Shown: piece by piece, positions 1-64,000 of the stretch | Position numbering within the stretch: position 1 is the first letter of the stretch | Layout: each line of letters opens with the position of its first letter | IMG/VR virus record: IMGVR_UViG_3300037255_000025 | Coordinates: 105,749-169,748 of that record | Source: a virus | Lineage: Duplodnaviria; Caudoviricetes | Length of the DNA stretch: 64,000 bases | Strand: one strand, 5' to 3' | Program-made: the position numbers and the translations under genes | Notes under the pieces: generated by a model | What the model saw: the letters and a program-made list of their open reading frames with translations, nothing else | What the model was told of the DNA's origin: nothing | Database searches by the model: none

Positions 1-858
1 ATGGCCGGCAAGGCCGCGCTGGGGTTCGCCCGGACGCTGCGTCGGATCCTGCGGGAGCGACGTCCGGGTTACCTGGCGGTTGCGGTCGACAACGCGCTGC
101 CGACGTTCCGCCACGACCTGTTCCGGCAGCACTCGGCCATGTTGGGCGCCGAGGACTACAAGGCCGACCGGGTCAAGCGGATCAAGCCCCACGAGCGCGC
201 GGCCGTGTTGGAGCAGATTCGCACGGCCCAGGAGCTGCTCGAAGACGCGTACGGCGTCCGGTGCCTCGCGGCCCGGGGGTACGAGGGGGACGACGTCTTG
301 GCGACGCTGGCCCAGCGCGGGCTCGACGCTGGGCTGAAGGTCGTGGTGGTCGCGTATGACAAGGACATGTTCCAGCTCGTGCAGCAGGACCGCTGTTGGG
401 TCTGGGATGGCGAGGGTCGGGTGTTCGACGCCGCGGCGGTCGAGGCCAAGCTCGGGTGCGCGCCGGACCGCGTGGTCGACTTCATGTCGATCGTGGGCGA
501 CTCGACCGATGGCGTGCGGGGCGTCGTCGGGGCCGGACCGGTCGCGGCGTTGAAGGTCTTGGCGGCGTTCCCAACGCTCGATGCCGCGCTAGAGTCGGCG
601 GAGCGTGGCGACCAGGACCACCCGCTGTGGCAGCAGGATCCGCGGCTCTGGGCCAAGGTGGTGTCGCAGCAGCGTCAAGCGCAGCTTTGCCGCCAGCTTG
701 TGACGCTCGCGCGTGACGTCCCGCTGGCCGTGACGCTCCAGGAGCTGAGCCTGTCGGCCTCGATGGCGGTGGAGCTAGCGCTCCAGGACACGACGGCGTC
801 CGAGGCCGACCCTGTTGACGGTCCCGAGGCGTTCGAGTGGTCGGTGGCGGATGTTTAG
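1..858 (+). CDS. 5'-3' exonuclease / flap endonuclease (Pol I N-terminal-like), possibly 5'-truncated
   Basis: Motifs AVAVD, TFRH, YKADR, GYEGDD, DKDMFQL and GDSTDGVRGVVGAG (helix-hairpin-helix). Confidence 0.9.
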   Translation: MAGKAALGFARTLRRILRERRPGYLAVAVDNALPTFRHDLFRQHSAMLGAEDYKADRVKRIKPHERAAVLEQIRTAQELLEDAYGVRCLAARGYEGDDVLATLAQRGLDAGLKVVVVAYDKDMFQLVQQDRCWVWDGEGRVFDAAAVEAKLGCAPDRVVDFMSIVGDSTDGVRGVVGAGPVAALKVLAAFPTLDAALESAERGDQDHPLWQQDPRLWAKVVSQQRQAQLCRQLVTLARDVPLAVTLQELSLSASMAVELALQDTTASEADPVDGPEAFEWSVADV

Positions 859-884
859 TCGCACCGCGGGGTAAGGTGGACGAA

Positions 885-1688
885 GTGAGCATCCTATCTG
901 ACAGCGCGGTCCTGGTCGCCATGGACCAAAAGCGCATCGTGATCGATCCGTTCGACCGAGCGCGCCTGGGGTCAAACAGCTACGACGTTGCGCTCGGCCC
1001 GCGCCTGCTGGTCTACGAGACCGAGGAGCCGATCCTGCGTCCGGATGGCCGCGTTTTCTTCCCGGGCGCGCCGACCATCCTGGACGTCCGAAAGCAAAAC
1101 CCGACGATGACGGTCGACATCCCGGAGTCCGGGATCGTCCTGCACCCCGGGCAGCTCTACCTGGGCTCGACGATTGAGCGGACCGAGAGCCACGACTTCG
1201 TGCCGGTGCTGTGTGGCAAGAGCAGCCTCGGTCGGTTGGGCCTTTCCGTGCACGTTACCGCAGGATTCGGGGATGTAGGATTCTGCGGGGCATGGACGTT
1301 GGAGCTGATGGTCGTGCGCCCGCTCCGCATCTACGCCGGCATGCCGGTGGCGCAGATCGCCTGGCACACCGTCGAGGGTTTGGTTCTGCGACCGTACGGG
1401 TTCAAGCCGGGGGCGAAGTATGCGAACCAGTCGGCGGACCCGGTGGCGTCGGAGATGTGGCGGAACTTCGACGGCCTGAAGCCTGACGAGTGGCGACCGA
1501 CCCCTAGCCGCGACCTTCCGCCGTTTAAGCTCAAGCCCGACGAGCGATCACAGCGCTGGCGCGACGCCGAGGCCCTGTGTGGTCCAGGCTACTGCCCACC
1601 CGACGCGCTCAAGATCATCGAGGAAGAGCAGGCCGCGTACGACGCCAAGCTGTCCGCAGTAAACCTCGACGGTGTGGGGCGGCCGTGA
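885..1688 (+). CDS. dcd: dCTP deaminase
   Basis: ILSD N-terminus, NSYDV, GKSSLGRLGL.VHVTAGFGDVGF.G.WTLEL, KY.NQ; GTG at 885 follows GGGTAAG motif. Confidence 0.92.
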   Translation: MSILSDSAVLVAMDQKRIVIDPFDRARLGSNSYDVALGPRLLVYETEEPILRPDGRVFFPGAPTILDVRKQNPTMTVDIPESGIVLHPGQLYLGSTIERTESHDFVPVLCGKSSLGRLGLSVHVTAGFGDVGFCGAWTLELMVVRPLRIYAGMPVAQIAWHTVEGLVLRPYGFKPGAKYANQSADPVASEMWRNFDGLKPDEWRPTPSRDLPPFKLKPDERSQRWRDAEALCGPGYCPPDALKIIEEEQAAYDAKLSAVNLDGVGRP

Positions 1689-1933
1689 GCTACGTGGTCC
1701 GGATATCAAGCGGGTATGACCGCTTGGCCTCCTTTTACGTGGCCGACGACGGGAGGATCACGGCGCAATTCGAGGATGCTAAGGAGTACCCGACGGTGGA
1801 GGCGGCCGAGCGAACGACGTTCTGGGTTGCGCGTGTCTGGGTAGGTTATGACGTACGTGTCGTAGACCTTGCGGAAGAACTCCTGACGCGAGAAGCCGCG
1901 CGTCAGGTTGGCGTCGAGGACCCGCTGTGGTGA
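1685..1933 (+). CDS. small paralogue family member (VVxLADExLExEA family)
   Basis: SYVVRI...AKEYPTVEAA...VVDLAEELLTREAAR; GTGA overlap with dcd stop. Confidence 0.75.
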   Translation: MSYVVRISSGYDRLASFYVADDGRITAQFEDAKEYPTVEAAERTTFWVARVWVGYDVRVVDLAEELLTREAARQVGVEDPLW

Positions 1934-2235
1934 GCGGCGCCGCGTGGTTGTTGGTGATGCCGCGACCCCCGGGGGTGAGCCGGCCTGCGCTGATGTGGTA
2001 TGTTGGGGGCGCAACCTGGACGTACGACGCGCTCCGCGCGACCGCGTTCCCGACCGCCGAGGCCGCCAAGGCCCAGGTCGACGCCGCCGCGATGGGGCTC
2101 GGCCCCAAGGTCGCGTTGCGCGTCCGGGCGGTGCTGTTCGCGGAGGTGCTGCGCGAGAACGAGGCGGTGCTGCGGCGTGCGGTGCCTGTCCTGACGGACC
2201 CACGGGGCGGTCCTGGGGGACGGGGCCGTGGTTAG
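1927..2235 (+). CDS. small paralogue family member
   Basis: AWLLVM...WY...ATAFPTAEAA...VLFAEVLRENEA. Confidence 0.7.
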   Translation: MVSGAAWLLVMPRPPGVSRPALMWYVGGATWTYDALRATAFPTAEAAKAQVDAAAMGLGPKVALRVRAVLFAEVLRENEAVLRRAVPVLTDPRGGPGGRGRG

Positions 2236-2487
2236 GCGCCAAGGGCCTTTCGTCGTTCGGGTCGAGACCTGGGAGGAAGACAAGCCCGTGGCCTTCTGCC
2301 GTTGTCACCCGCGTGCTCGCGGCGAGGTCGCCTGACGCGTCACCCGTCGTTGGCCGCGGCGTTCGCGGTCGTTGGCCAAGCAAACGTTCTGGCCACCCGA
2401 TACGCCCGAAAGTACGGGTGGACCCGCACCTCGCGCGTTGTCCCGCTCGCTGATGCCCTGTTGGAGGTTGAGGCGGGCCTTGTCTGA
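2228..2487 (+). pseudogene. frameshifted paralogue family member
   Basis: PFVVRV frame stops at TGA 2333; VVPLADALLEVEAG is in another frame; one extra G (TGG ACG) would restore it. Confidence 0.6.
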
Positions 2488-2752
2488 GTTCTTGATCCGG
2501 TTACACAGAGACGGAGTCTGGCCGTACTACTGGACCCAGTATTACTTGGGTTGGGTGACAGAGCCCTCGCGGGCGACCCCCTACTTGGAGGAGGAAGCGC
2601 GCGAGGAACTCAAGCGCGTGATCCACTACTTGGAGGAGGACGCGCGCGAGGCACTCAAGCGCGTGATCCGTCGGACAAGTCAGCCGAGTCTCGACGTCGT
2701 TCCGTTGTCCGACGCGATGTTGGACCGGGCCGCGCGCTATCCCAACCTCTAG
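2480..2752 (+). CDS. small paralogue family member with internal 45-bp duplication
   Basis: EFLIRL...YYLGWVTEPSRATPY; YLEE.ARE.LKRVI twice; VVPLSDAMLDRAAR. Confidence 0.7.
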   Translation: MSEFLIRLHRDGVWPYYWTQYYLGWVTEPSRATPYLEEEAREELKRVIHYLEEDAREALKRVIRRTSQPSLDVVPLSDAMLDRAARYPNL

Positions 2753-2994
2753 CCCAACGCCTCCTCTTCGAAGTGGCGCAGGCCGTGGAGGGACCTCGGC
2801 GCGCGCAACGCGGCGCTCGGGCGCGAGCGTGCGACCGCCGCCCAGACGGCCTCCGCGGCTTCCTCAGCCGCCGACAGGATCGGCGGCGGGTACTCGAGCG
2901 CGCTCAGGGGGGCCGTGACCCGCGTACGCCTCGCCGGGTACGGGGCCGCGTAGGGGTTGCAGATTTTGGCAGACTGGGGCACAAAGCTCATCAC
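2749..2994 (-). CDS. hypothetical protein, opposite strand inside array
   Basis: 81 aa ORF filling a gap between paralogues. Confidence 0.4.
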   Translation of the reverse strand: MMSFVPQSAKICNPYAAPYPARRTRVTAPLSALEYPPPILSAAEEAAEAVWAAVARSRPSAALRAPRSLHGLRHFEEEALG

Positions 2995-3241
2995 GTTGAC
3001 CTCTTGCTCAGGTTGACCAGGCCCTCGGCGTTACCCGCGCCGGGGGCTTTCGTTCGTCTGAGAAGCTAAAACCGGGCCGGAGTCGCGGCCCTGGTAACTT
3101 AAGGCTTTTCTAGCAATTCTGCACGGCCGGTAGACGCAAAAACGCATCACACGTCCTACAATTGCGCATCGGGGCGATCAACCCCGGGCGTAAGGGCGGC
3201 GCGGGTTCCGAAGCGTCGCCCGCGGGGGTAAGGATCCGGGC

Positions 3242-3490
3242 GTGGGCGAACAGCATGTCGGCGCGTGGATCGTGAAAGTAGTCGGCGGACACGTAGACGT
3301 GTCCGCGGCGTGGGTGGTGCGCATCGGCGCGATGACAGGGGCCAGCCGCGTCACGACCGAGCCCGGGAAGGCGGTGTTCACCACCCGAGCCACGGCGCTC
3401 GACTGGATGAAGGCAAACCACGCGTCCGCGGGGTGCGCGGTTCCGCTGGCTGATGAGCTGCTTGAGTGCGAGGCCCGACGGACGCCATGA
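3242..3490 (+). CDS. small paralogue family member
   Basis: AWIVKV...KAVFTTRATA...AVPLADELLECEARR; GGGTAAG motif upstream. Confidence 0.75.
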   Translation: MGEQHVGAWIVKVVGGHVDVSAAWVVRIGAMTGASRVTTEPGKAVFTTRATALDWMKANHASAGCAVPLADELLECEARRTP

Positions 3491-3750
3491 AGCAAGCGTG
3501 GATCCTGCGGGAGTTGCCTGACGAGCCTGACGTGGCGCTCTCGTCGGTCTGGCGGAGACCTACGCTCTACGTAAGCGTGTACGGTGACGATTGCGCGGTC
3601 TTCGCCCTTTCGGCAGCAAAGGTGTTCCGGTCGGCAGCTTGCGCAGAGCGTCACCGTCGTCGTCTTTTGATGCCCGATCGGTGGACCGTGGTTCCGTTCG
3701 CGGACGCGATGCTCGATTACGAGGCGGCGCGCCATGAGGCGGCCCGATGA
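3487..3750 (+). CDS. small paralogue family member
   Basis: AWILRE...AKVFRSAACA...VVPFADAMLDYEAAR; ATGA overlap. Confidence 0.75.
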   Translation: MKQAWILRELPDEPDVALSSVWRRPTLYVSVYGDDCAVFALSAAKVFRSAACAERHRRRLLMPDRWTVVPFADAMLDYEAARHEAAR

Positions 3751-4010
3751 GCCGCGATGCTGGCTGGGTCCTGAAGTCGCGGATGACGGCGGAGTACTTT
3801 GTGGCTGGGGTTCGGACGGGAGGTACTTGGTACACCGGGGTTCGGACGGGAGGTGCTTGGTACACCGTCGCGCCCTACTGTTCGATGGGCCGCGTGTTCT
3901 GGACGGAAGCCGACGCCCAGGAGGCCCGCGGTCGCCTCGACGACCCGGAGACGTGGATCGTGGTCCCGTTGGCGGATGAACTGCTGGAACAGGAGGCCCG
4001 ACGCCGATGA
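3747..4010 (+). CDS. small paralogue family member with 30-bp tandem duplication
   Basis: GWVLKS...(GVRTGG.WYT)x2...VFWTEADA...VVPLADELLEQEARR. Confidence 0.75.
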   Translation: MSRDAGWVLKSRMTAEYFVAGVRTGGTWYTGVRTGGAWYTVAPYCSMGRVFWTEADAQEARGRLDDPETWIVVPLADELLEQEARRR

Positions 4011-4297
4011 CCTGGGTCTTGGTCTGTAGACGCCCCGGCGCGCAACGCGGCGCGCAACGCGGCGCGCAACGCGGCGCGCAACGCGGCGATACTTATTACG
4101 CCCGGGACCTGCGTTCGCACGGTGAAGACTGGCCATACACGCTCATGCTCGACTTCGCCCAGGAGTTCTCGACCGAGCAAGCCGCGCTCGCGCATCGGAT
4201 AGAGCACCCCAGCGATGATCACGAGCTTGTGGTGGCGGGTCCTTGGATCGTGGTTCCGCTGGCGGATGAGCTGCTGGAACGGGAGGCGCGGCGCTGA
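4007..4297 (+). CDS. small paralogue family member with (GAQR)4 repeat
   Basis: TWVLVC...AQEFSTEQAA...VVPLADELLEREARR; 12-nt repeat GGCGCGCAACGC x4. Confidence 0.75.
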   Translation: MTWVLVCRRPGAQRGAQRGAQRGAQRGDTYYARDLRSHGEDWPYTLMLDFAQEFSTEQAALAHRIEHPSDDHELVVAGPWIVVPLADELLEREARR

Positions 4298-4575
4298 TGA
4301 GCTGGGTCCTGAAGCAGGCGGCGTTCCACGACGGCCGTGTACCTAAGGAGCCCCCCGCGCCGTACTACCTGGGCAGGACTCGCCCCGTGGCTCAGGACTC
4401 CGCGGCGGCGTGGTACACGAGTCCTGGGGACGCGATCGAATTCACGACCGAGCAGGATGCACGGGACTTCGTTCAGGAGCGGGGGATCCTCGGGGAGTGG
4501 CGACCCGTTGATCTCGCGGGTGAACTGCTGGCGCGCGAGGCTGCGGGCCCGAGCGGCAAGCCGGACCGCGGATGA
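4297..4575 (+). CDS. small paralogue family member
   Basis: SWVLKQ...YYL...AIEFTTEQDA...PVDLAGELLAREAA. Confidence 0.75.
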   Translation: MSWVLKQAAFHDGRVPKEPPAPYYLGRTRPVAQDSAAAWYTSPGDAIEFTTEQDARDFVQERGILGEWRPVDLAGELLAREAAGPSGKPDRG

Positions 4576-4582
4576 GGACCCG

Positions 4583-4807
4583 ATGCCCTGGATCCTGAAG
4601 CAGGACAGACCCTGGCCCTGGTACGTGTGGCGCGCGTTCCCAGCGCTCGTCGCCAACGGGGCGTACCACATGACCGATAGCCCCGGGAGGGCGCTCGCGT
4701 TTGACACGTGGGCCGAGGCCGACCGCTTCCGTAGCCCCAGTCTCGACCTCCATTGTGTCAACCAGGCGGACGAGACGCTGTCGTGGGCCGCGGCCCAGCA
4801 CCCGTGA
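4583..4807 (+). CDS. small paralogue family member
   Basis: PWILKQ...ALAFDTWAEA...VNQADETLSWAAA. Confidence 0.7.
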   Translation: MPWILKQDRPWPWYVWRAFPALVANGAYHMTDSPGRALAFDTWAEADRFRSPSLDLHCVNQADETLSWAAAQHP

Positions 4808-5069
4808 AGGCCGCGAAGCCCGTGTGGATCGTGAGATTCGGGTCGCGACGATCGACGATGTGGGCCTGCCTTGCTGGCTTTACTTGTACATGGACGCCAA
4901 CGACGACGTTGAGGCGACGAGCTGGCTTGACCTCGCGACCGAGTTCCCTCGTTCGGGGGAGGCGCGCCGGCTTCTGAAGCGGGGGGGTCTAGGCCCCGTG
5001 GGCTGGGAACCCGTGGACCTCGCGGACGAGATGCCTGAACACGCGTTGGAGCACGAGTCGCGGCGCTGA
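4804..5069 (+). pseudogene. frameshifted paralogue family member
   Basis: VWIVR in one frame, ATEFPRSGEA...PVDLADEMPEHALEHE in another; shift near 4840. Confidence 0.55.
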
Positions 5070-5096
5070 GTCGCGGCGCTGAGTCGCGGCGCTGAG
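5055..5096. repeat. 13-bp tandem repeat (GAGTCGCGGCGCT)x3
   Basis: Seen directly at the end of array A. Confidence 0.85.
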
Positions 5097-5332
5097 CAGA
5101 AACCTGTCTGCGGGGCGTTCGGGCTCAACGGCGTAGGCGCGCTCTAGCGTGCGTCTCCGTGGAGCCTCCTTGGGAACCCGGGCCAGTATATCGCCGGACG
5201 CGCCAGAAGCGTCTCGTGTGGCCGCGACGCCCCCCGGGCGCCCGCTCGGAGCTTCCTCGGAGCTTCCTCGGAGCCTCCTCCCGCGCCCCACGCTTGCGGC
5301 AAGGGCTGCCGCGCCGGTACAATGCCCTCTCC

Positions 5333-6187
5333 ATGCCGAGAAAGTTCCGTCCCCCGGTCGACCCCGCGCTGCGCCAGAAGCGCCCCGCGCTGCCCCGTAC
5401 GCGCGCGCTCTACGATGAGTATGTCGAGCAGTTCCGCCGGGATAGCCGCATCGCCCGGGTCGCCGCCCACTTCGGCGTCACGTGGACGACGGCCCGGATC
5501 GTCTACCACGACGGGTGGGTCGGGATCCCCTGGGCCCGGCCGATCAAGAAGGTCCTGGAGCAGGACGTCTTCGAGGAGGAGAACCGGTCCCGGGAACAAG
5601 CCCGCCGCGACCGCGCCCGGGAGCTAGAGGCCCGGGAAGCCGAGCAGGAAGCGAAGCGCGAGGCCCTGAAAGCCGAGCGACAACGGGCCCAAAACGAAGA
5701 GGCCACGCTGGTCACCAGCACCCGCCGAGGCCTCCAGCAGCTTGCCTCAGTCGTGCTGGCGCTGAGCCCCGCGGCGGCCCAGATGGTCCGGGTCGTGATG
5801 CGCGAGGCGTTCGACGAGACCGTCGGGCCGGACGGCAAGCCCCAGTACACGCCCAAAGCCATCCCGACGATCAAGCCCGACGCCGCGATGAAGTACCTGA
5901 ACGCCATGGCCCAGATGGCGGCCCGCGTGACCGTCGCGGGCGTGGATCTTTCGCACTTTGCCGCCGAACGCCGTGGGCCGGAGCCCACGGTGGGCGCGGT
6001 TGAGATGACGGAGGAGGAGAACGAGGAGGCGTTGCAGCACGCCCGCTCCATCCTGTGGAGCCTCGACGAGGAGGCCCGGCTGAAGCGGGAGGACGCGTAC
6101 CCGCGGCCCGAGGCCCCGGCGGTCGCGCGGGAGGACGCCCCGGACAAGCCCTCGATCGGGCCCCAAAACCCGGGCGAAGTGCACTAA
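5333..6187 (+). CDS. HTH plus coiled-coil protein; candidate terminase small subunit or DNA-binding protein
   Basis: IARVAAHFGVTWTTARIVYHDGW helix-turn-helix pattern followed by helical region; TACAAT upstream. Confidence 0.5.
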   Translation: MPRKFRPPVDPALRQKRPALPRTRALYDEYVEQFRRDSRIARVAAHFGVTWTTARIVYHDGWVGIPWARPIKKVLEQDVFEEENRSREQARRDRARELEAREAEQEAKREALKAERQRAQNEEATLVTSTRRGLQQLASVVLALSPAAAQMVRVVMREAFDETVGPDGKPQYTPKAIPTIKPDAAMKYLNAMAQMAARVTVAGVDLSHFAAERRGPEPTVGAVEMTEEENEEALQHARSILWSLDEEARLKREDAYPRPEAPAVAREDAPDKPSIGPQNPGEVH

Positions 6188-6188
6188 A

Positions 6189-6252
6189 GGTATATACCTT
6201 TGCTTGCGGGTATATACCTTTGCTTGCGGGTATATACCCGAAGGTATATACC
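6189..6252. promoter_or_regulatory. array of four GGTATATACC palindromes
   Basis: Copies at 6189, 6209, 6229 and 6243 in an AT-rich intergenic gap. Confidence 0.75.
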
Positions 6253-6260
6253 CCGGATTC

Positions 6261-6677
6261 ATGGCAGCTAAACAGAAGCGACTGTTGGTTTGGTCGGCGA
6301 GGGCAGAGGCGGCCCTTCGTCGCGCGGAAACGGAGCGGAGGGCCTCCTTGGGTCGGGAGCTTCTCCCGCGCGAGAAGTCTGCAAGCTCCGTTGTGCTCTG
6401 GGCCCTTGAGTCGGTCGGGTCTCCGCGACCTACTATCCGTGAGCGTGTCCGCGAGAAGGTTGTGCAGGCTCATGTGTATCTTGAGGGCGACCCCGTGGGC
6501 GAGCAACACGACGCTGCCGTCGCCATGGCTAGGCTGCGCGAGATCGAGGCGCACCCTGAGCGCCTCGTGAGGGGCGAAGAACTGGGGAAGCTCCTTGATG
6601 GGCTGGCGGAGTTCCCCGAGCCCTTGGTCGAGTACGACGACCCTCGGGTTGCCGCGAAGAAGGCCCGGCGCGGGTAA
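6261..6677 (+). CDS. hypothetical, possible DNA-binding regulator
   Basis: Basic N-terminus; directly follows the palindrome array. Confidence 0.5.
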   Translation: MAAKQKRLLVWSARAEAALRRAETERRASLGRELLPREKSASSVVLWALESVGSPRPTIRERVREKVVQAHVYLEGDPVGEQHDAAVAMARLREIEAHPERLVRGEELGKLLDGLAEFPEPLVEYDDPRVAAKKARRG

Positions 6678-6687
6678 GGACCGGGGC

Positions 6688-7020
6688 GTGCCCTGGATCA
6701 TCAAGCTCACGGAGCTGGCCACGACGCACTGGCCCTCCCCGGGACGGACGGCGTACCTGCGGGCGTGGCCCCAAGGCCCTGTTGGGTGGCGCGCCGTCCA
6801 GATGACGCACATCGTCGCGACCGACGGCGCGGCCGTTTGGGTGCCAGAGCTGAGCCTGGCGAAGGTGTTCGCCACCGAGGAGATCGCGCGCGCCGCGGCG
6901 GACCGATGCCGGTCCAAGATCGGGGAGGCGCGGTTTGTGCGGCTTGAGTTCGCGGACTGGGCGGGGGAACTGTTGGAGCGAGAAGCCGCCCACGCTGGGG
7001 GTAAGGGACCGCGAACGTGA
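6688..7020 (+). CDS. small paralogue family member
   Basis: PWIIKL...AKVFATEEIA...WAGELLEREAA; stop overlaps tnpB start. Confidence 0.75.
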   Translation: MPWIIKLTELATTHWPSPGRTAYLRAWPQGPVGWRAVQMTHIVATDGAAVWVPELSLAKVFATEEIARAAADRCRSKIGEARFVRLEFADWAGELLEREAAHAGGKGPRT

Positions 7021-8240
7021 AGATCCTCCGAGCGTACAAGACCGAGCTGGACCCCACGGTCTCCCAGACCGAGCAGCTCCTACAGCACGCCGGTTGCGCT
7101 CGCTGGGCTTACAACTGGGGTCTCCGAAGGAAGATCGAGTCCTACGAAGCTACGGGCAAGAGTCCGTCCTGGGTGGATCTCAACCGCGAGCTGAACGTGA
7201 TCAAGAAGCTCCCCAAGGAAGCCGGCGGGGTCCCGTGGATGTACGAGTCCTCGAAGTGTGCCCCGCAGGAAGCGCTCCGAAACCTTGATCGAGCCTTTGA
7301 GGGCTTCTTTCGTCGGTGTAAGAGCGGCTCGAAGCGGAAAGGCTTCCCTCGGTTCAAGTCTCGTAAGCGGGGCATCGGTAGCTTCAAGTTCAGCGGAACG
7401 ATTCATGTAGAAGAGCGACGGGTTCAGCTTCCCCGTCTCGGGAAGATCAAGCTCAAGCAACGCGGGTACCTCCCGACCTCGGGGGTGAAGATCCTCTCAG
7501 CTTCGGTCTCGGAGCGAGCGGGGCGGTGGTTCGTTTCGATCCAGGTTGAACAGGGGCTACCGGATCCCGCACCCAAGCCCACGTCGGTTCTCGGGATCGA
7601 CGTTGGGATCAAGAATCTCGGGGTCACCAGCGAAGGCGAGGTCTTCTCCAACCCGAAGGCGCTCCTGGCAGCGCAGAAGCTTCTCCGAGCGCGTCAGAAG
7701 TCTCTCGCGAGAAAGACCAAAGGATCGAACAACAGGAGGAAAACGGCCGCTAGGGTCGCCCGTCTACACGCTAGGATCTCCAATATCCGGAGGGATTCGA
7801 TCCACAAGATGACGACTGCGATCACCAAGCAGGCGTCGGTTCTCGTGATCGAGGATCTCAACGTCCTTGGGATGCTGAGAAACCACTGTCTCGCCCGGTC
7901 TCTGTCGGATGCCTCCCTCGGGGAGATCCGCCGGCAGCTCACCTACAAGAGCAAGTGGCGCGGGGTCGAGCTTCGGGTAGCGGACCGCTTCTATCCAAGC
8001 AGCAAGAGGTGCTCGGGGTGTGGAGCGGTCAAGGTCTCGCTCTCGTTGGCCGAGAGGGTCTACCGATGCGAGCTTTGTGGTCTCGTGATCGATCGAGACC
8101 TGAACGCTGCCCTCAACTTGAAAGATTTGGCCGGGAGTTCCCCGGTGCAAGCCTGTCGCCCTGGAGGCTCTGGTGCTGCTCTTACGAGCGGTACGAAACC
8201 TCTGGTTGGGCAGGAACCGAACCGGGAGGCTTCCTCGTGA
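7017..8240 (+). CDS. tnpB: RNA-guided endonuclease TnpB, copy 1
   Basis: RAYKTEL N-terminus; RuvC GIDVG / IEDL / DRDLNAA; CxxC-CxxC zinc ribbon. Confidence 0.95.
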   Translation: MKILRAYKTELDPTVSQTEQLLQHAGCARWAYNWGLRRKIESYEATGKSPSWVDLNRELNVIKKLPKEAGGVPWMYESSKCAPQEALRNLDRAFEGFFRRCKSGSKRKGFPRFKSRKRGIGSFKFSGTIHVEERRVQLPRLGKIKLKQRGYLPTSGVKILSASVSERAGRWFVSIQVEQGLPDPAPKPTSVLGIDVGIKNLGVTSEGEVFSNPKALLAAQKLLRARQKSLARKTKGSNNRRKTAARVARLHARISNIRRDSIHKMTTAITKQASVLVIEDLNVLGMLRNHCLARSLSDASLGEIRRQLTYKSKWRGVELRVADRFYPSSKRCSGCGAVKVSLSLAERVYRCELCGLVIDRDLNAALNLKDLAGSSPVQACRPGGSGAALTSGTKPLVGQEPNREASS

Positions 8241-8281
8241 AGCAAACCGGCCCGGAGAACGTATTCGGTCCGTTCTTTCAA
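8129..8281 (+). ncRNA. omegaRNA of tnpB copy 1 (scaffold ends GGAGAACG at 8261; guide TATTCGGTCCGTTCTTTCAA)
   Basis: Identity among four loci ends at GGAG(A/G)ACG; covarying hairpins; 5' boundary approximate. Confidence 0.75.
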
Positions 8282-10391: not shown

Positions 10392-13300
10392 CTAGACGGG
10401 CGTTCGCCTAGCCAAACCACTGATGCTCCAACCAGTGTACTGGCCCGCCTTGATCTGCGCCCAAATCTCGTCGTCGACCACCCTACAGGCGAGCAACCAA
10501 GTCCCCTTCGCGACCTTACGGCCGTTGATGATCAGGTCACAGGGTGCGATGTAACTTTCTACCGGTCGCAAATGCCCGTTCACGAGGACCTTATGCTGGA
10601 GATCGATGTTCCGGTAGTCCTCCATCCAGCGGTGCGCCGACTTGGCGATCTCATCGGCGTCGTAAGTGTCGAATTGCGCGTCCACCGACGGGGACGGCTT
10701 CAGCACAATTCCAAGGATGTACCGCTGCTCTACTGGAGCCGCGTCGTCGGCTTTCCCGACCTCGACGATCTCGACCTCGCGCTCGTCGGCCTTACGGACG
10801 TGGCGCTCGTTGATGAACCCTGGGTCGCCCGTACCCTCGGCTGCGGGCACGACCGGGATGAACGGCCGCGTCATCGAGTCCGCGGAGTCGCTGGCCTTCT
10901 GGGCGAGACCTTCGAGTGAGCGGTCTGGCGTCGGCGTGTTGCCCTCGGCGGCGCGCAACGCGGCGCGCACGTCAGGACCCGCGGCCTTTTGGGCGAACTT
11001 CCCGTCGTCCTCGCGTGGCTGGTCACCGCCAGACCCCGCGCCCTTGTCGTCCGCCTTTGAGCCGGTTCCGTCGGGCTTCGCCACCGCGACCTTCTCGGCG
11101 TGAGCCTGGCCCGCGTCGAGTTCTCCCTGGAGGTCGGCCCAAGCCTTCGGGTCGTCGATGTCCGAGTGGAGCCGGTCGAGCGCGTCGTGGGTCTTCTCGG
11201 CTGCGGTCTTGTGACCCTCGGCGGCCTCTTGGTGGCGCTCAACGCCCGCCTTGTCGCCCGCCTCGGCGGCCGCGACGGCGGCGCGCGCGTGCTCCGCCGC
11301 GGCTTGCTCGTGGTCCCCGGCGACCTTTGCGGCCGCGGCGGGGTCGGGCTTCGCGGCCTTGTCCCCGTTGAGCTTGTCTCCGCCGGGCTTCTTTCCGTCA
11401 GCGGCGATCTGCCGCGAGGTCGTGCCCGCGCGATCGGAGGCGTGCTGCGAGACGATGTCGAGTGCGTTGGACACGACGTTCAGCGTCGAGTGGAGCAGGC
11501 TCCGGGCATCGGTGATCTGTGCGGCCTCGTGCAGCAGGTCTAGCCCATGGCCCGCGCGGGGTGCGGCTCCGTTGGCCGTGCTACCGCTTCCCGAAGCGCG
11601 CGGGGTCTTACCGCCCGAAGCCGCCCGCGGGGCCCGGTCCTCGCCCGACAGGGGCGCACGGCGGTCGTGTTCGCTCACGCGCGCGCCGGTCGAGCGATGG
11701 TGCTCGTCGACGTGGACCGACGCCTTCGCGACCGCGGCCTCGTTGATGTCGTCGAGGAGCTTGCGCGCGGCAGCCGAGCACGACGCCTTCACGTCCGCCG
11801 GCAGGTTTGACTGCGGGATCCGCGCGAGCGCGTTGCGCACGTGGGCCGCGTCGGGCTTGCCGTCCGGACCCCGGACCGGGAAGTGCCGGAGCGTCTTGGG
11901 CGTCGTCTTGCCGTCGACCTTCTCGCCGCCGGACTCGACGTGGAGGAACGCGGAGTCCGGAAGGTCGTTTACCTCGGCAGAACTCCACTCGGCTTTGCGA
12001 ACCTCGGCGAGGTCGAGCGCCGCCGCCACTGAGTCCTCAAACGCGTCCGCCAGGAGCGCCTTCGTGACCTCGGCGGGTTCGAGACCCAACAGGGCCTTCA
12101 CCATCTGCACCGACGTGGTCTGGATGCACTTCAAAGTCGCCGAGGGCTCGTGTTCTTCGAAGGCTGCCGCCGCCTTGTCGGCGTCCTCGAAGCCAAAGAG
12201 GATTGCGTACTCGGAAAACTGGCTGTCGGCTTTCTGGTGTACGGCCCATTGGGCGCGAGTATCGTTCGCCTTCGGCCCGAGGAAGACGTCCAGGCCCGTC
12301 CCGACATCCCCCGCGATCCCGGGGATGAATCCGTAGTCGAACTTGTAGACCAAGTCGCCCAATTCACTCTTCTGAACGAACCCCGCGGGGCGGTCGACGT
12401 GGACCGGGACGCCTTGGTAGTCGACCTTCTTGATGACGGGACCGCGGGGTGCGCGTCCCGTCGGAAGTGGCTGGCCGGGGGCGTCGTAGCCCTCGGTGTG
12501 CCCCTCCTCGCCGACGACCTTCTGCGATACCGCGTAGCCCACGGGGGTGTCGCGCCGGACCGTGTAGCCCGCGCCGGGCTCGGCTCCGCCGACGCGCTCG
12601 TCAGGACCGGGAACCTGCGGGCTGTTCTTCGCCGCGGGCTCGATGCCGTCGTCCTCATCCGACGGGAGCTTCGCTCCCTTACCGGGCGCGGGAGGCCGCG
12701 GCTTTCCCGGAGCCTTCGGGGTCCTGGCCGCAACGCCGCTCTTCGGCGGCCCCGCCGTGGTGTCCGCGGGGTCCTCCCCAGGCGGGGCCTTGCCGTCGGG
12801 ACCCGTCTGGTCCTCGCCCTGTCCGGCGAAGTCGCCCAGGCCCGCGCCTTCGGCGGAGTCCGTCGGCGCAACGCCACTCGTCAGGTCGTCCCAGTCCTTG
12901 TCGGTCATGGACGCCAACGCGTCCTGGATGCCGGCGAGGATCGTGTTGGTGAACAGCTCGGTCCCGTCGTCATCGCCGAGGTCGGCCTTGAACGTGACGC
13001 CGATGGCACGCTGGGCCGCGTGCTTCGCCAAGTGCTCGACCGTGTGTTCGGCCGCGTGAGCCGCCAGGTGGTGCGCCAGGGCCTCGGCAAAGTGCGGGAC
13101 GGCGTGCTCGATCGCGGACCCAACGGCGTGTCCGACGCCGGGCAACGCGGCACCAACGGCGGCGAACGCGAGCTTGACCGCGACCTTGAGCGCGACGGTC
13201 CGCATCGCGGCCTTCTGCTCTGGCGTGACTTCTTTGCCCGTAACGGCGCTCTTGAGCCCCTGAGCCGCGGTCTTGACCAATCCGACCTCGTGCATGACCG

Positions 13301-40035: not shown

Positions 40036-40867
40036 GGAGCCTCCGCAGGACCTCGGCGGCGGCCCACCAAGCAAGCACACCGCCCACGCGGCCCCCGCCG
40101 GTCGCGACCACGATACCGGGCGACGCCTCTCGCACGGTGGGCTCGGGCAGGACAGGGCGCATCCCCCAGATTGAACCACGATCCTCAAGCGTGCCCACAG
40201 CTTCTTGGAGCGGACCCAACGCCCGCACGCGCATTTTCTCTGTGTAGTCGTGCGCGCGCGATGGATCGCGCTCCAAAGTCTCGCCAAGCCGCACGACACC
40301 CAACCCCCACGAACGCGCCGCGTAGGCAAAGTACGACGTCACCGGGACCAGCATCGTCCGTGCGGGCGTTCGCTCCGCCTTGAACAAGAGACCGCGCCCG
40401 CCGAGCGCCTCGACGCCCACGAGGGCAAGCCCGCTTGCGTTCAGAATCTGGTCCGTCCAGACGCCCGCGGCGAGCACAACAAGCCCGCCCTCGACAACGT
40501 CGCCCCCCTGGAGGTGTACGCGGCCGCGCTCGACGCGCGTGACCTTCCCCGCAGCCCGCTCTGCGTAGAGCGCCAAAACGTCCTCGGGCCAGAACGTCGC
40601 CCAGTCCAACCGTGCCTTGCGTCCGACGACATCGGCACCGTCGAAGTCAAAAACAGCCCCGTGTTGCCGTCCGAGCGACTCGGCTGCGCGCGCTCGCTCG
40701 GCCCAAAGGCCCTTGTACCAAGAGCGCGCGTAATAGCCGCTCGCCGCTCGTGAGGCCGCGCTGGGCTCCGCCGAGTCGATCAAGGTAACAGACGCGCCTG
40801 CGTCGGCCGCGACCCGCGCGATAGCGGTCCCCCAGAAGCCGCCGCCCACCACGACGAGGTCCTTCAA
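40028..40867 (-). CDS. FAD-dependent oxidoreductase (DAO/glycine-oxidase-like)
   Basis: VVVGGGFWG dinucleotide fold, ASRAASG, VLAAGVW, WGMRP. Confidence 0.85.
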   Translation of the reverse strand: MKDLVVVGGGFWGTAIARVAADAGASVTLIDSAEPSAASRAASGYYARSWYKGLWAERARAAESLGRQHGAVFDFDGADVVGRKARLDWATFWPEDVLALYAERAAGKVTRVERGRVHLQGGDVVEGGLVVLAAGVWTDQILNASGLALVGVEALGGRGLLFKAERTPARTMLVPVTSYFAYAARSWGLGVVRLGETLERDPSRAHDYTEKMRVRALGPLQEAVGTLEDRGSIWGMRPVLPEPTVREASPGIVVATGGGRVGGVLAWWAAAEVLRRLRG

Positions 40868-43899: not shown

Positions 43900-44009
43900 G
43901 AGACGTCTCAAACTTGCAACGTTCTCCGGGGGGTTCAGCAAGCTGATACCCGGTTCGGTTCCTGCCCAACCAGAGGTTTCGTACCACGCTTACGCGCAGC
44001 ACCAGAGCC
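43900..44009 (-). ncRNA. orphan omegaRNA-like element without tnpB (guide TTGCAAGTTTGAGACGTCTC)
   Basis: 90-nt homology (43920-44009) to tnpB 3' ends, with compensatory stem changes, ending GGAGAACG. Confidence 0.75.
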
Positions 44010-44181
44010 GCCCCGGTACCGCCGCCCTGGCTTCCGCCTCTGTATTGAATACCCAGGCGAACTCAACCAACGGCGTGAACGAACGCGCGGCCGTGAGATC
44101 GCTGTTGCGTAGGTAGTAGTAGTACCCTGGCTTCTGTTCCGGACGACCTAGTTCACCCGCTCTGTATCGGACGACCCACAC
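43990..44181 (-). pseudogene. paralogue family member truncated by the omegaRNA element
   Basis: VWVVRY...YYYYL...AWVFNTEAEA, then runs into the omegaRNA; lacks the VVxLAD tail. Confidence 0.6.
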
Positions 44182-59870: not shown

Positions 59871-59921
59871 GAGTAAAACTATAAGACGTCTGTACCGAAG
59901 CGCAAGTGTTAGAAGAGAATT
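59871..59921 (-). promoter_or_regulatory. sigma70-like promoter, copy 2
   Basis: AATTCTCTTCTAACAC-TTGCGC-N16-TATAGT-N7-ATG. Confidence 0.8.
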
Positions 59922-62900
59922 ATCTTCCGCCAAGCCTCAGCATCACGCTCGAGTACGGGATCTCGACACCGTCGACCGTAACGGTGCCCCACCGGGACGC
60001 CCCCGCCGCCCGCTCGAGCAGCACGTCGGCCTCGTGGGCCGGCGTCAACTCCCCGGCACAGGCCACGTGCTCAGCGCAGCAAGCCAGCGCGGCCTCCTCG
60101 GTCTCGAACCGGGTCGCGTCCATGAAGAGGCCCCCGTGGGCCACGACGCAGCCCGACCCGCGGAAGTGCCGCAGGAAGGCGCCGCCACGCACCCAGGGCC
60201 GGGCGCACCTCAAGACCCAGAACATCAGCACCCCCTGCGCTTCCTCGCCGTGGCTCGGTCCTGGTGCGCGATTTCACGCTCCAGCATCTCCTCGGCCTGG
60301 TCAACGACGTACAGATCAGGCATACCGCTCGACGCCGCAAACGCCTCCGCGGCCTCAAGGGTGTCGAACGTCAGACACCCTTGCTCCCGCGAAACGAGGG
60401 AGAAGATCATCGGACCCCCGACCCAATCGGTCCTAACCGCCAGGTAACAGACGTCGTTGTGGCGCCGGGCTTTGACGAGGAAGCTCACGTGAGCCCCAGC
60501 GCCTTACGGACCCTGAGCAGGTACGACAACGTAATCGTCGCGCTATCCAACCGGGTACGCGCGACCTCCCGATCCAGCATCCGCGCGGACTCCCCCCGGC
60601 GCCACGCTTTCTTTCGGCTGCGGCTGCTCAAGAGTTCACCAAGCGCCAGCCGATATTGTCGGCGAAGGTGAGCGTGCTGCCGACCGGAAGATGTGCTGCC
60701 GTCCGGTGGATACTGCGGTTGTGGCGCACCGCGACGTCGGCCTCGCCCGGGCCCAAGTTGACGATGCTGACGGCCCCCGGCGGCTCGTGAACCAACGGGG
60801 TCCAGCCCACGCCCGCGACGCCAGGCCAACCCGGTCGCGCGCCCGCCGGGCCTCTTGCGCCGTCGAGAACACGTCAGCTTGGTCTGGGTGGTGCGTGATC
60901 ATGACCTGGCGCTTGGGCCCCAGCCAAAAGTACCGGGTTCGAAACGCCCGGTCTGGCGGGAAACGCAAGACCCACGGCATCAGGAGCACCTGACGACCAG
61001 CAACGGAAAAGCCTCATTTTCCAGCAGCAACGCCGCCAGGTCCAGAACCTCGACGGTCCCGTACGGCGCCGTGGTGTCGTGTCTTTGCATAAACGCCGTC
61101 GCGTCTTGCTCGGTACGGAAGACGACGGCATCCGACAGCGCGCCCCACCACAAGACGTCTCTTCTCTTCGGCGTCACGACGAAGTCCCCGGGGGCGGTGT
61201 GAACGACGAGGTAGCGCCAGGGGCGATCCTGGTGGTCGGGACCGAGGGCTCTACGCAGGACGAACGGCACGACCGCTACCTTACCTCCGAGAGCCAAGCT
61301 TCGGTCGCCAACATGGCGTCCGCCAGTGCGATCGGGACACAGCGGCTTAGACCCCCCAACCGAGGCGCCGCCCGACGCCAGGCCGCAAGCGCCGCAAGCG
61401 CCTCGCCCTCAGTCAGGAATCCCATCGCGGCTGCCGGGTATTCCGTGACGTTGAGCCAAGGCTCCTCGAGCGGCGTTCTCTTGTAGAACCAACGAACGTA
61501 CTCAGGCTGCCACGAGTCCTGGCGACCGGCGGGCTCGAGCAAGAGGAGCCAAGTCATCGCCTGGCCCTCGCCGCCAAGGCCTGCCGCTCCAACGCGTGTT
61601 CCAGCATCTCGCCTGCAAGGTCCACGACCTTCCACCGGTGGCCGCGAAGCGCGACCAACGTGGGCGCCGAGGCCTCGGCTTCTTCCCGGGTATCGTACAC
61701 GCGGGCCGACGTTGGCCGAGCGCACCACGTCCCAAGCGGACCGAGGTACGGCGCGTAGCTTGGTGTTCGCTTGATAACCCACACGGTCAGGACCCCGCGG
61801 CGCGTGCCGCGTTTCGCGCAGCGTAGTCGAGCATCGCCCCGGCCTGGTCCACAACGTCCAAGTCGAGCCCCGGACGCCACGGGCAAGACTCGATGTAGTG
61901 GCAAGCCTGATCCGCCGTCTCGAACACGTCAGCCCCACCGGGCGGCCCCCAACCGAACGACACCCGGGGGGCCGTCGTGTAGTAGTAGTCGTGACGGGCG
62001 CTCCCCACGCTGATGAGGATACGGCGGCGGATGATGAACATCAGGTCTCCCCCGCGGCCCAGCCCAACATGGCGTCAGCCAAGCGAACAACGAACAGGCG
62101 CCGACCTTCCTTGTTGTGGCGCTTCACGTAGTCCCCCGCGGCCTCGGCGGTCTCAAACGTCAGGGCATTGCCCGGTGACCCCCAGGGGCTCATGGCCGCC
62201 GTCCAGTAGTCGTGGCGCACGGCTCCCATGAGGTCAGTGACCCGAATTTGGCGGCAAATGACCCAACTCATCCCGCCTCGCGCGCCAGCAGTTCGTCCGC
62301 GAGGTCCACGATCTCCAACGGGCCCGAGATCCGCAATCGTTTGATGAACACCCACGCGGCCGCTACATCCTCGAACACCTTCGCGTCGGACGCCCGCGGC
62401 GTGACGAACCACGACAGCTCCCCCGACGCGACGAGTTGGTCATCCACGACGTAGCTGTATCCCTGACGATACAGGGGTCGCTCAGTGTCGCGCGGCGTAC
62501 GCTTGATGCAGTACGGCACGATCAAGCTCCCCCACGCTCGGCTTCTCGTTCCAAGAGCACCGCCGCGAGGTCCACGACTTCGTAGAGGTCGAGGCCGATT
62601 GTGCGCGCGGTCCACCGCGCCTGGGCCTCGGTCTCAAACCGCTCGGCGAACAAGGGGAGCGGCACCAGACCGGTTTTGTCCCACGTGTTGGGTCGGACGT
62701 AACCCCAACCCTGGTTTGTCCAGCCCCGCAGTTGCACACGTAGGATGAACATCACCGGGCCGCCTTCCGCGCTTCTCGCTCCAACAGGTACTCCGCGAGG
62801 TCGCACACCTCGACGGTCGAGATCGTGCGGTTCGCAATCTGCCACGATCGACAGTAAGCCCGCGCCGCCGCCTCGCTCGCGAACTCCGTGGCGTCAGAGA

Positions 62901-62994
62901 CCCAGTGGGACCAGTCTGCAACGGCGCGTTCGCCCCGCAGGTACAGCGGGAAGGGTGACTGGCCTTGCGACGGCATTCGTACGATCCAAGTCAC
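59920..62994 (-). other. array B: 11 tandem paralogues (62752-62994, 62522-62752, 62268-62519, 62041-62271, 61787-62041, 61554-61784, 61276-61557, 60980-61270, 60636-60980, 60225-60488, 59920-60225)
   Basis: Each has a W/F-V/I-hydrophobic N-strand and A..F.T..EA; most end VVDLA..LLE.EA; coupled or abutting start/stop codons. Confidence 0.8.
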
Positions 62995-63140
62995 GACGGT
63001 CCCTTACGTCCTCCGGGGCCGGTTTGCTTCACGAGGAAGCCTCCCGGTTCGGTTCCTGCCCAACCAGAGGTTTCGCGATCCTCTTACGAGAACCGCCAGA
63101 GCCTCCAGGGCGACAGGCTGACACCGGGGAACTCCCGGCC
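62987..63140 (-). ncRNA. omegaRNA of tnpB copy 3 (scaffold ends 63007; guide TAAGGGACCGTCGTGACTTG)
   Basis: Shared 3' boundary; distinct but base-pair-preserving hairpin. Confidence 0.75.
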
Positions 63141-64000
63141 AAATCTTTCAAGTTGATAGCAGCGTTGAGATCCCGATCGATCACGAGACCACAACGCTCG
63201 CATCGGTAGACCCTCTCGCTCAACGAGAGCGAGGTCTTCACCGCCCCACACCCAGAACACCTCTTGCTGCTTGGGTAGAAGCGGTCCGCGGTCCTTAGCT
63301 CGACCCCACGCCACTGACTCTTGTAGGTGAGCTGTCGGTGGATCTCCCCGAGGGAGGCGTCCGACAGAGACCGGGCAAGACAGTGGTTTCTCAACATCCC
63401 GGCGACGTTGAGGTCTTCGATCACGATTACTGACGCCTGCTTGGTGATCGCAGTCGTCATCTTGTGGATCGAATCCCTCCGGATATTGGAGATCCTAGCG
63501 TGCAACCTCGCGACCTTCTGGGTCGCTTTCCTCCTGTTGTTGGACCCCTTCTGTTTCCTCGCGACCGCTTGTTGTCTCGCTCGGAGAAGCTTTTGAGCCG
63601 CCTGGAGAGCTTTTGGGTTCCTAAAGACCTCCCCCTCGCTGGTGACCGCCAAGCTCTTGATCCCAACGTCGACCCCGAGGACCGACGTGGGCTTGGGTGC
63701 GGGATCCGGTAGCTCTTGCTCCACCTGGATCGAGACGTACCAACGTCCCGCCTTCTCGGAGACCGAAGCTGAGAGGATCTTCACCCCCGAGGTCGGGAGG
63801 TACCCGCGTTGCTTGAGCTTGATCTTCCCTAGCCTTGGGAGCTGAACGAGACGCTCCGAGACCTTGATCCCCTCGCTGAACTTGAAGCTACCGATGCCCC
63901 GCTTACGAGACTTGAACCGAGGGAAGCCTTTCCGCTTCGAGCCGCTCTTACACCGACGAAAGAAGCCCTCAAAGGCTCGATCAAGGTTTCGGAGCGCTTC
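63029..64000 (-). CDS. tnpB: RNA-guided endonuclease TnpB, copy 3 (5' end outside window)
   Basis: Near-identical to copy 2; RuvC D/E/D intact. Confidence 0.95.
   Translation of the reverse strand, partial: EALRNLDRAFEGFFRRCKSGSKRKGFPRFKSRKRGIGSFKFSEGIKVSERLVQLPRLGKIKLKQRGYLPTSGVKILSASVSEKAGRWYVSIQVEQELPDPAPKPTSVLGVDVGIKSLAVTSEGEVFRNPKALQAAQKLLRARQQAVARKQKGSNNRRKATQKVARLHARISNIRRDSIHKMTTAITKQASVIVIEDLNVAGMLRNHCLARSLSDASLGEIHRQLTYKSQWRGVELRTADRFYPSSKRCSGCGAVKTSLSLSERVYRCERCGLVIDRDLNAAINLKDLAGSSPVSACRPGGSGGSRKRIAKPLVGQEPNREASS

Follow-up and report, generated by a model that had tools for sequence, protein, structure and literature searches.

Here we describe a family of small, single-domain phage proteins encoded in a 64,000-nucleotide stretch of DNA (the window), which forms the last 64 kb of the 169,748-bp virus record IMGVR_UViG_3300037255_000025 in IMG/VR (67.5% G+C; complete according to CheckV). 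The window holds 24 copies of this family, which is predicted to have a strand-strand-strand-helix-strand-helix fold, and 23 of them lie in two arrays that are the halves of one locus, now separated by an inverted segment of about 56 kb. We tentatively favor, at somewhat less than even confidence, a reading in which the family would be a repertoire of host-protein binders built on a common scaffold and expressed in the early or middle phase of infection.

The family was delimited with a profile hidden Markov model (HMM) built from 11 clear members and run against all 933 stop-to-stop segments of the window (six frames, 40 codons or longer). A first pass returned 23 segments at E<0.002, and a second returned 24. 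The original prediction had counted about 24 members in three places, and the HMM returns exactly these: 12 at 1685-7020 (array A), 11 at 59920-62994 (array B), and one at 43990-44181. Scanning the whole genome with the profile added four members outside the window—at genome positions 7221-7481, 18697-19008, and 70278-70532, with a double-length member at 77956-78465—for a total of 28. The family accounts for about a tenth of the phage's genes, and we know of few phages that devote such a share to one small-protein family. Members are stand-alone, soluble proteins of about 75-110 residues, with roughly 80 being typical. Three of the 24 copies in the window are defective, and here the earlier description needs amending: the count of 12 open reading frames (ORFs) in array A stands, but A3 is a C-terminal fragment rather than a full member; the 11 ORFs of array B are likewise all present, but B9 has lost its tail in every frame; and the lone copy belongs to the family, but is cut after residue 63, so that its tail is missing.

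The conserved motifs that were first noticed were each confirmed in alignments. The proteins begin two or three residues ahead of W-[VIL]-[VIL]-[KR], which is followed by a strand with a Tyr (52 of 56 sequences), a Trp strand with the pattern W-T..P, and the segment A..F.T...A, in which the first Ala is kept in 53, the Phe in 51, and the second Ala in 58 of 59 aligned members. A tail with the consensus V-D-L-A-x-E-L-L-x-x-E-A comes next, and variable C-terminal extensions of 2-25 residues lie beyond it. The paralogs fit the expected picture of divergent loops on a constant scaffold—their pairwise identity is 17-44%, conservation falls on hydrophobic or small scaffold positions, and indels are concentrated in four connecting segments. 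Because these four segments and the exposed positions are wholly different among paralogs, each copy would present a surface of its own.

Two members were modeled with AlphaFold2: A8, using 21 sequences (predicted local distance difference test score, pLDDT, 81.6; predicted template modeling score, pTM, 0.73), and B1, using 59 sequences (pLDDT 89.8; pTM 0.77). The two models share one element order, as a single fold for the family would require; in B1, the strands span residues 3-7, 17-20, and 27-29, followed by a helix (41-54), a strand (62-65), and a final helix (66-79). From the alignment and the secondary-structure output, we infer that W-[VIL]-[VIL]-[KR] forms strand 1, that the Tyr lies on strand 2, and that Trp-Thr..Pro surrounds strand 3; A..F.T would start and cap helix 1, with V-V-D as strand 4 and L-A-x-E-L-L-x-x-E-A as helix 2.

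The tail, which consists of the last strand and helix, had been proposed to be a constant docking segment. Both models instead make it part of the fold (block pLDDT 89-97). Its best-kept positions are V64 (51 of 59), A67 (53 of 59), L71 (53 of 59), L66, L70, and A75; these are hydrophobic or small and are spaced i, i+1, i+4, i+5, i+9, which corresponds to one helix face, and D65 (or Pro) stands at the expected helix-cap position. Since the conserved L/A/L/L/A residues share this spacing, they would be expected to pack against the domain. The positions in between (68, 69, 72, 74) are acidic in only 46-61% of members, and Y18, A35, F38, and A44, all outside the tail, are conserved as well as the tail or better. 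Conservation of the terminal Glu-Ala can also be explained in part by the DNA; the codons for this pair (GAGGC) form a GAGG/GGAGG ribosome-binding site 4-13 nt 5' of A4, A6, A8, A9, and B4, and so double as the Shine-Dalgarno sequence of the next gene. Our reading of the models is that the tail would be a scaffold element and not a detachable docking peptide; the docking claim in its original form is not supported.

Neither sequence nor structure comparison linked the family to a characterized domain, in keeping with the original statement that it was not recognizable. When 59 aligned members were scanned singly against Pfam-A, PHROG, and NCBIfam, no family was matched by more than one member (best E 0.003). 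Foldseek found nothing in the PDB at E<=0.001 with either model, and in an exhaustive VIA-align search no chain came to Z>=5 by whole-model count with either model, the best re-aligned row reaching 5.0 against a stated noise level of Z 7-8. The top row for both models was a 70-residue chain of 8G9S, from a study of type I-C CRISPR-Cas3 inhibition; it lies below the noise level, at Z 4.7 for B1 (root-mean-square deviation, rmsd, 3.2; 57 residues aligned) and Z 5.0 for A8 (rmsd 3.6; 65 aligned), with Tic22, a phage 812 neck chain, and topoisomerase fragments within one Z unit of it. A full-text literature search on 8G9S returned unrelated papers only. Look-alikes in the Atlas are unnamed viral clusters; its DUF2849 clusters are a weak lead (score 0.82-0.85; TM 0.43-0.50), Pfam gave no match to DUF2849 (PF11011) at E limits of 0.1 and 1, and four genomes searched for DUF2849 sequences yielded none. 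An RNA recognition motif (RRM) or ferredoxin-like fold was rejected, as the predicted strand-strand-strand-helix-strand-helix order differs from strand-helix-strand-strand-helix-strand, and RRM and quasi-RRM (qRRM) chains reach Z of only 2.5-3.2. A DNA mimic of the Ocr/ArdA type was also rejected, the isoelectric points ranging from 4.5 to 12.0 (median 5.8) and the net charges from -9 to +15.

A profile search of 1.84 billion cluster representatives recovered 71 proteins at E<=0.001. The full-length small matches among them come from this phage, from its close relatives, or from a distant phage of 72% GC; one of its contigs, of 12 kb, carries about 17 members and another, of 6 kb, about 9, some of them double-length. 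The close relatives are represented by contigs L004 and L005 of JGI 3300079119, a 130-kb ENA contig (L090), and an NCBI assembly contig (L091). Comparing array content across these genomes, as had been suggested, showed that copy sets differ between relatives—there are 23 array copies here and 16 in L090, and L005 has an extra A9-like copy. An alignment-based homologue search returned eight proteins, none beyond those of the phage and the relatives already found; a single-protein search with A9 among viral contigs found no relative; and two degenerate tail-DNA patterns run over IMG/VR gave 0 and 7 stretches, none of the seven being a member by HMM. A literature search found no description of such an array.

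In the remaining profile matches, all long proteins, just the strand-strand-strand-helix core (profile positions ~3-60) recurs, with 2-7 repeats per protein. Four of these repeat proteins carry a 2H phosphoesterase domain, and one of the four, P0006, also scores as Acb1-like and has an InPase domain; according to PMC5512222, 2H and InPase domains belong to phage 'polyvalent' conflict proteins, and a term search of that paper did not find the repeat module. Where repeat matches are very short, as in the LPXTG surface protein P0045, they may amount to no more than the widespread motif of a strand plus an F.T.E.A helix. Two multi-repeat proteins with the core module, at L093:7561-8670 and L094:8001-10427, sit 3' of HTH_3-type (helix-turn-helix) regulator genes; the L094 stretch is an operon of otherwise unknown genes, and L093 also has DUF2786/DUF7168 and a faint GIY-YIG match. 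Both stretches look like early regions of other mobile elements.

The original prediction treated arrays A and B as separate, which the colinear relative L090 contradicts: there, A12 adjoins B1, and the arrays are two halves of one locus. Positions 5963-12126 of L090 match window 1-7011, and the next stretch, L090 12098-19938, matches the other strand of the window from 63025 back to 51419, minus the TnpB copy at about 53943-55190. The order in L090 runs along one strand with no TnpB: the exonuclease and dCTP deaminase-like genes, A1, A2, the reverse-strand ORF, A5, A6, A7, two A8-like genes, an A11-like gene, genes for the proteins of 284 and 109 amino acids (aa), A12, B1, B3, B4, B5, an uncalled B6-like frame, B10, B11, and then small genes. 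The L090 junction (12090-12160) reads GGGGGTAAGGGACCGTCGTGACTTGG, and the A12 stop overlaps the B1 start. In the window, this empty site is split; its left half borders the left end of TnpB copy 1 (7017), and the other half, GTAAGGGACCGTCGTGACTTGG, lies against the inverted TnpB copy 3, at the right end of that copy (63005). About 56 kb (window 7017-63005) is inverted relative to L090 and is bounded by these two inverted TnpB elements. In L004, one deletion runs from just 5' of A12 into B2, taking A12 through most of B2; as a single deletion, it implies that A12, B1, and B2 were formerly neighbors. The simplest history that these sequences suggest is that TnpB inserted at the A12/B1 junction and then recombined with a second, inverted copy, flipping the ~56 kb between them. 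The apparent inversion may instead be an assembly mis-join at the TnpB repeats; against this, the TnpB copies are only 87-91% identical. The TnpB right-end remnant elsewhere in the window begins exactly where the lone member is cut.

Most genes of the locus are translationally coupled, as originally proposed: 15 of 21 junctions fall between -8 and +16 nt, mostly as ATGA, GTGA, or TGATG overlaps. The hexamer GTAAGG occurs 7-13 nt before the start of five genes that head coupled runs—A5, A12, B1, B8, and B10—with sites including 3228, 6674, 60502, 61279, and 63002. It is enriched in the window (26 copies versus 11.6 expected; no shuffle reached 26), and its spacing would suit a TAAGG-type ribosome-binding site. 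The layout places the genes in a few polycistronic units, each headed by GTAAGG, within which translation is predicted to be coupled. Coordinates for the locus, the lone member, and the associated TnpB elements are provided in Table 1.

Table 1. Members of the small-protein family in the window, with the other genes of the locus and associated TnpB elements (relatives are named as in the text).
Feature	Position in window	Strand	Description
A1	1685..1933	+	member, 82 aa; start overlaps stop of dCTP-deaminase-like gene (GTGA); HMM match
A2	1930..2235	+	divergent member, 101 aa; degenerate tail AVLFAEVLRENEA; found in HMM pass 2; L090 orthologue 98% identical
A3	2302..2487	+	fragment, helix 1 to tail; HMM covers profile positions 44-92 only; probably a remnant
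A4	2480..2752	+	member; in-frame 45-nt x2 tandem duplication at 2581-2669; orthologue P0008 without duplication
Opposite-strand ORF	2749..2994	-	81 aa, non-family; 91% identical counterparts in L090 and L005; G+C at third codon positions 0.90
A5	3242..3490	+	member; heads sub-operon; GTAAGG 8 nt 5' of start
A6	3487..3750	+	member; ATGA overlap with A5
A7	3747..4010	+	member; in-frame 30-nt x2 duplication at 3807-3867; orthologue P0009 without duplication
A8	4007..4297	+	member; 12-nt x4.4 repeat (GAQR units) in strand 1-2 loop, 4036-4088; structure model 1
A9	4297..4575	+	member; TGATG overlap with A8
A10	4583..4807	+	member; divergent tail
A11	4824..5069	+	member; divergent N-terminus
Non-family gene in locus	5333..6187	+	284 aa, start set by orthologue; 99% identical to L090 gene (residues 59-342 of long ORF); no family-profile, Pfam, or PHROG match
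Non-family gene in locus	6348..6677	+	109 aa by orthologue; no Pfam or PHROG match
A12	6688..7020	+	member, 110 aa; stop overlaps B1 start in relatives
TnpB copy 1	7017..8263	+	at ancestral A12/B1 junction; left inversion boundary; Pfam OrfB_IS605 and Cas12f1-like_TNB
TnpB right-end remnant	43949..44012	-	64 nt; blastn 90.6% identity to right end of copy 1; abuts truncated lone member
Lone member	43990..44181	-	truncated after 63 residues, tail gone; tblastn with intact orthologue P0052
B11	59920..60225	-	member; long C-terminal extension
B10	60225..60488	-	member; L090 orthologue 100% identical
B9	60636..60980	-	defective; tail lost, frame continues to 114 codons; tblastn with intact orthologue P0013 covers residues 1-59 only
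B8	60980..61270	-	member; GTAAGG 8 nt 5' of start
B7	61276..61557	-	member; HMM match
B6	61554..61784	-	member; HMM match
B5	61787..62041	-	member; HMM match
B4	62041..62271	-	member; protein 100% identical in two relatives
B3	62268..62519	-	member; HMM match
B2	62522..62752	-	member; HMM match
B1	62752..62994	-	member, 80 aa; structure model 2; ancestrally directly 3' of A12
TnpB copy 3	63005..64000	-	continues past window and contig end; right inversion boundary

Protein identity between orthologues of this phage and the JGI relative is highest for B4 (100%) and lowest for A6 (54%), with ratios of nonsynonymous to synonymous divergence (dN/dS) of 0-1.2, mostly 0.2-1.2. When 12 pairs are pooled, the N-terminal strand and loop part has a dN of 0.140 and a dS of 0.211 (ratio 0.67), and the C-terminal part a dN of 0.066 and a dS of 0.136 (ratio 0.49); by dN, the N-terminal part changes about twice as fast. 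These values are consistent with weak purifying selection on the family. Family-specific positive selection was considered and rejected, since neighboring genes have similar dN/dS. The tree of the family is star-like: terminal branches have a median length of 0.76 changes per site, and support is limited to orthologue pairs and a local A5-A8 clade (94/90), a pattern suggesting ancient paralogs to which local tandem duplication has added a few. In-frame loop duplications are found in A4, A7, and A8 of this phage, and the orthologues are without them. The repertoire turns over by tandem duplication, deletion, in-frame loop duplication, and decay, and in this phage also by TnpB insertion and the ~56-kb inversion. 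A diversity-generating retroelement was rejected as the source of the variation—PF00078 finds no reverse transcriptase in the 169,748-bp genome, although control genomes respond, and the copies vary by indels and whole-sequence divergence.

What might such a family do? On the tentatively favored reading, the paralogs would bind different host proteins (defence or housekeeping factors, for instance) stoichiometrically, as inhibitors or adaptors, and the set would act early to mid infection. In its favor count the size of the family and its single predicted fold, scaffold conservation with indels confined largely to the connectors, the lack of a match to any known enzyme or structural family, the like-folded small proteins of other phages, the coupling, the genomic placement of the locus, copy sets that vary among close relatives, the arrays of the distant phage, weak purifying selection, and the company that the core module keeps with conflict-protein domains. 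Several points weigh against it. The binder role is proposed from the genes and the predicted models; the two models are not independent, as the alignments behind A8 and B1 overlap; and burial of the conserved tail face is read from spacing and model confidence. The link to polyvalent conflict proteins extends to the core module only, and is one of guilt by association. Neighboring non-family accessory genes have dN/dS of 0.4-0.6, no lower than the family, so the whole region appears to be fast-evolving and not the family alone, and the three broken copies among 24 fit weak or relaxed selection. A more far-reaching form of the binder reading, which we regard as doubtful, is a germline 'binder library': one minimal scaffold, its connecting loops varied through the gain and loss of genes and through in-frame slippage duplications, in which each paralog would neutralize a different defence or takeover target, and related phages would tune host range by swapping, deleting, or expanding cassettes.

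Other readings can be set against that of target-specific binders. The paralogs may be self-associating subunits of a hetero-oligomer or chain—in effect an unfused repeat protein—with each tail helix docking on a conserved surface of the next subunit, such as the W/Y/W of the sheet. Translational coupling would give near-equimolar synthesis, Trp, Tyr, and Trp are conserved on the three strands, and fused forms with 2-7 cores exist, among them the double-length members of this genome (77956-78465) and of the distant phage; a full helix 2 tail is typical of stand-alone proteins, whereas most fused repeats have a shorter tail or none, their matches stopping at about profile positions 55-65. We nevertheless consider such an assembly unlikely: the monomer model places the tail with a block pLDDT >90, which suggests packing against the tail's own domain; four members stand alone at separate places in the genome; and copy sets that vary as freely as 16 versus 23 are hard to square with a defined assembly. 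A constant docking tail that ties all paralogs to one phage or host hub, leaving the variable body to select cargo or targets, strikes us as distinctly unlikely. It is true that the tail is the longest contiguous conserved stretch, that one face is moderately acidic (46-61%), and that it is kept in two phage lineages otherwise only ~25-35% identical; however, its strongest conservation is hydrophobic or small on one helix face and does not exceed that of Y18, A35, F38, and A44, both models fold it into the domain, its Glu-Ala partly coincides with a downstream ribosome-binding site, and the variable 2-25-residue extensions come after it.

Packaging in the capsid, or decoration of it, would make the proteins virion-associated cargo delivered with the DNA, like T4 internal proteins or polyvalent-protein domains. 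The core module does occur inside giant proteins with InPase and 2H domains, which PMC5512222 predicts to be virion-packaged, and this genome has its own InPase and XkdF-protease polyprotein at 10392-13883; the likeness to the phage 812 neck chain (Z 4.5, rmsd 2.9, 57 residues) is weak, however, and within the noise range of the tool. With no cleavable targeting peptide evident, and an ancestral order that puts the locus after replication and nucleotide-metabolism genes, far from the portal, protease, and other head genes, we think a virion role very unlikely. We attach just as little probability to the idea that a putative aromatic and basic sheet face (W3, K/R6, Y18, W28) binds RNA, single-stranded DNA, or a nucleotide signal, in an RRM-like or sponge-like manner that the loops only tune. 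Three neighboring strands do carry conserved aromatics, and 85% of members have a basic residue as well; the core module also occurs fused to 2H domains, phosphoesterases of cyclic nucleotides or RNA ends; and RRM, qRRM, and SPOR appear among the weak fold matches (Z 2.5-3.4). Yet all of these scores lie below the noise level, the element order is unlike RRM, isoelectric points run from 4.5 to 12 with a median of 5.8, and 28 paralogs for one ligand class would be left unexplained. Least likely of all, in our estimation, is a largely neutral, decaying expansion, in which the array swells by unequal crossing-over between the conserved tail-coding segments and the majority of copies do little or nothing. 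Three defective copies of 24, dN/dS values often at 0.5-1.2, copy numbers that differ between relatives, and ~36-nt tracts at 89% DNA identity connecting the tails of distant copies would all fit; but most copies retain their frames, start-stop coupling, and all scaffold residues despite <35% pairwise identity and long branches (median 0.76), the B4, B5, and B10 orthologues are 100% identical across phages whose neighboring genes differ, and arrays persist in a second, distant lineage.

Whichever role applies, the family has a confidently predicted fold without a solved counterpart and is not annotated in Pfam, PHROGs, or NCBIfam. If the paralogs are target-specific binders, the locus would supply dozens of candidate anti-defence or host-takeover proteins, a compact natural scaffold for engineered binders, and a clear case of phage repertoire evolution by tandem duplication, loop slippage, deletion, and insertion-element rearrangement; should the binder library form prove true, it would constitute a new class of modular counter-defence repertoire as well as a new natural binder scaffold. 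The locus is also a concrete, sequence-resolved example of TnpB reshaping a phage genome, by gene-junction insertion and then a 56-kb inversion.

The locus, an accessory region of the phage genome, starts directly 3' of the 5'-3' exonuclease and dCTP-deaminase-like genes, and further small unknown genes lie beyond it; relatives keep the same placement, with the exonuclease and dCTP-deaminase-like genes on one side and small unknown genes on the other. Within array A, the opposite-strand ORF of 81 codons at 2749-2994 is likely a real gene. Short tandem repeats, perfect or near-perfect, flank the 284-aa gene at 5055-5096 (13 nt x3.2), 5245-5280 (11 nt x3.3), and 6189-6238 (20 nt x2.5), and the first of these enters the 3' end of A11. 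Other recognizable genes in the window encode a portal (only ~30% identity to any cultured phage), a protein with InPase and XkdF-protease domains, a NUDIX-containing giant protein, a ParB-like protein, and several TnpB proteins of the IS605 OrfB type. The InPase and XkdF protein has 1163 aa (10392-13883, minus strand), with the XkdF-type prohead protease domain at its C-terminus; it adjoins head genes, and its architecture is polyvalent-protein-like. A 1035-aa ORF at 37222-40329 (minus strand) has LAGLIDADG/homing-endonuclease domains, which suggests an intein or an inserted endonuclease. The closest cellular relatives of the TnpB proteins (50-57% identity) come mostly from Chloroflexota metagenome-assembled genomes (Anaerolineales, Chloroflexia, and Ktedonobacteria), a weak hint about the host. 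Both ends of the contig lie within TnpB copies (genome positions 1-463 at the start, window 63005-64000 at the end), and its first and last ~190 nt align with a 10-nt offset and two mismatches; the record, though classed as linear, therefore probably represents a circular or permuted assembly whose break falls in the repeat.

Comparison with known proteins and systems helps to place the family. The nearest in predicted fold are many small phage proteins in BFVD, including A0A6G6XWY5, S5MDG1 (Sinorhizobium phage phiM12), R9ZZQ6 (Cellulophaga phage phi18:3), and several of 'Siphoviridae sp. ct6d71'; these have 60-90 aa and the same predicted fold (TM 0.55-0.78; rmsd 2.3-3.0 over 62-82 columns), and some phages carry several copies. 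They differ in sequence, at 11-19% identity with a best Foldseek E of 7e-3, and are uncharacterized; to our knowledge, none forms an array of more than 20 copies. The fused repeat proteins (P0004, P0024, and others) match the family profile significantly, with E down to 1.5e-14 over 2-7 stretches (mostly 3-7 in the longer ones) that span the W..Y..W..A..F.T..A core, and in the giant phage proteins P0006, P0018, P0020, and P0043 the core module accompanies 2H/Acb1-like and InPase domains; unlike the family, these proteins have their units in one polypeptide, mostly without the helix 2 tail. NDUFS4 (PF04800) and DUF2849 share with the family a local motif, W..P...F.T.E.A followed by a strand, and no match to either is significant; PF04800 is matched by a single one of the 59 members, at E 0.09, and the profile matches NDUFS4 chains of the PDB over ~30 residues at E 0.14-0.41.

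Two phage systems offer parallels in organization. The internal protein (IP) locus of T4-type phages encodes polymorphic small proteins with a common short capsid-targeting sequence, one of which, IPI*, blocks a host restriction enzyme. The family resembles it in having tandem small proteins, a constant short segment, and variation between related phages. In the T4 proteins, however, the common part is a signal at the N-terminus that is cleaved off, and their bodies lack homology to one another, whereas here the whole domain is homologous, the constant part is C-terminal and structured, and there is no shared N-terminal leader ahead of strand 1. Anti-CRISPR and anti-defence clusters are likewise made up of small, fast-turnover, unannotated proteins in accessory operons; these clusters usually combine unrelated families with a helix-turn-helix regulator, whereas the present genome has one family in 28 copies.

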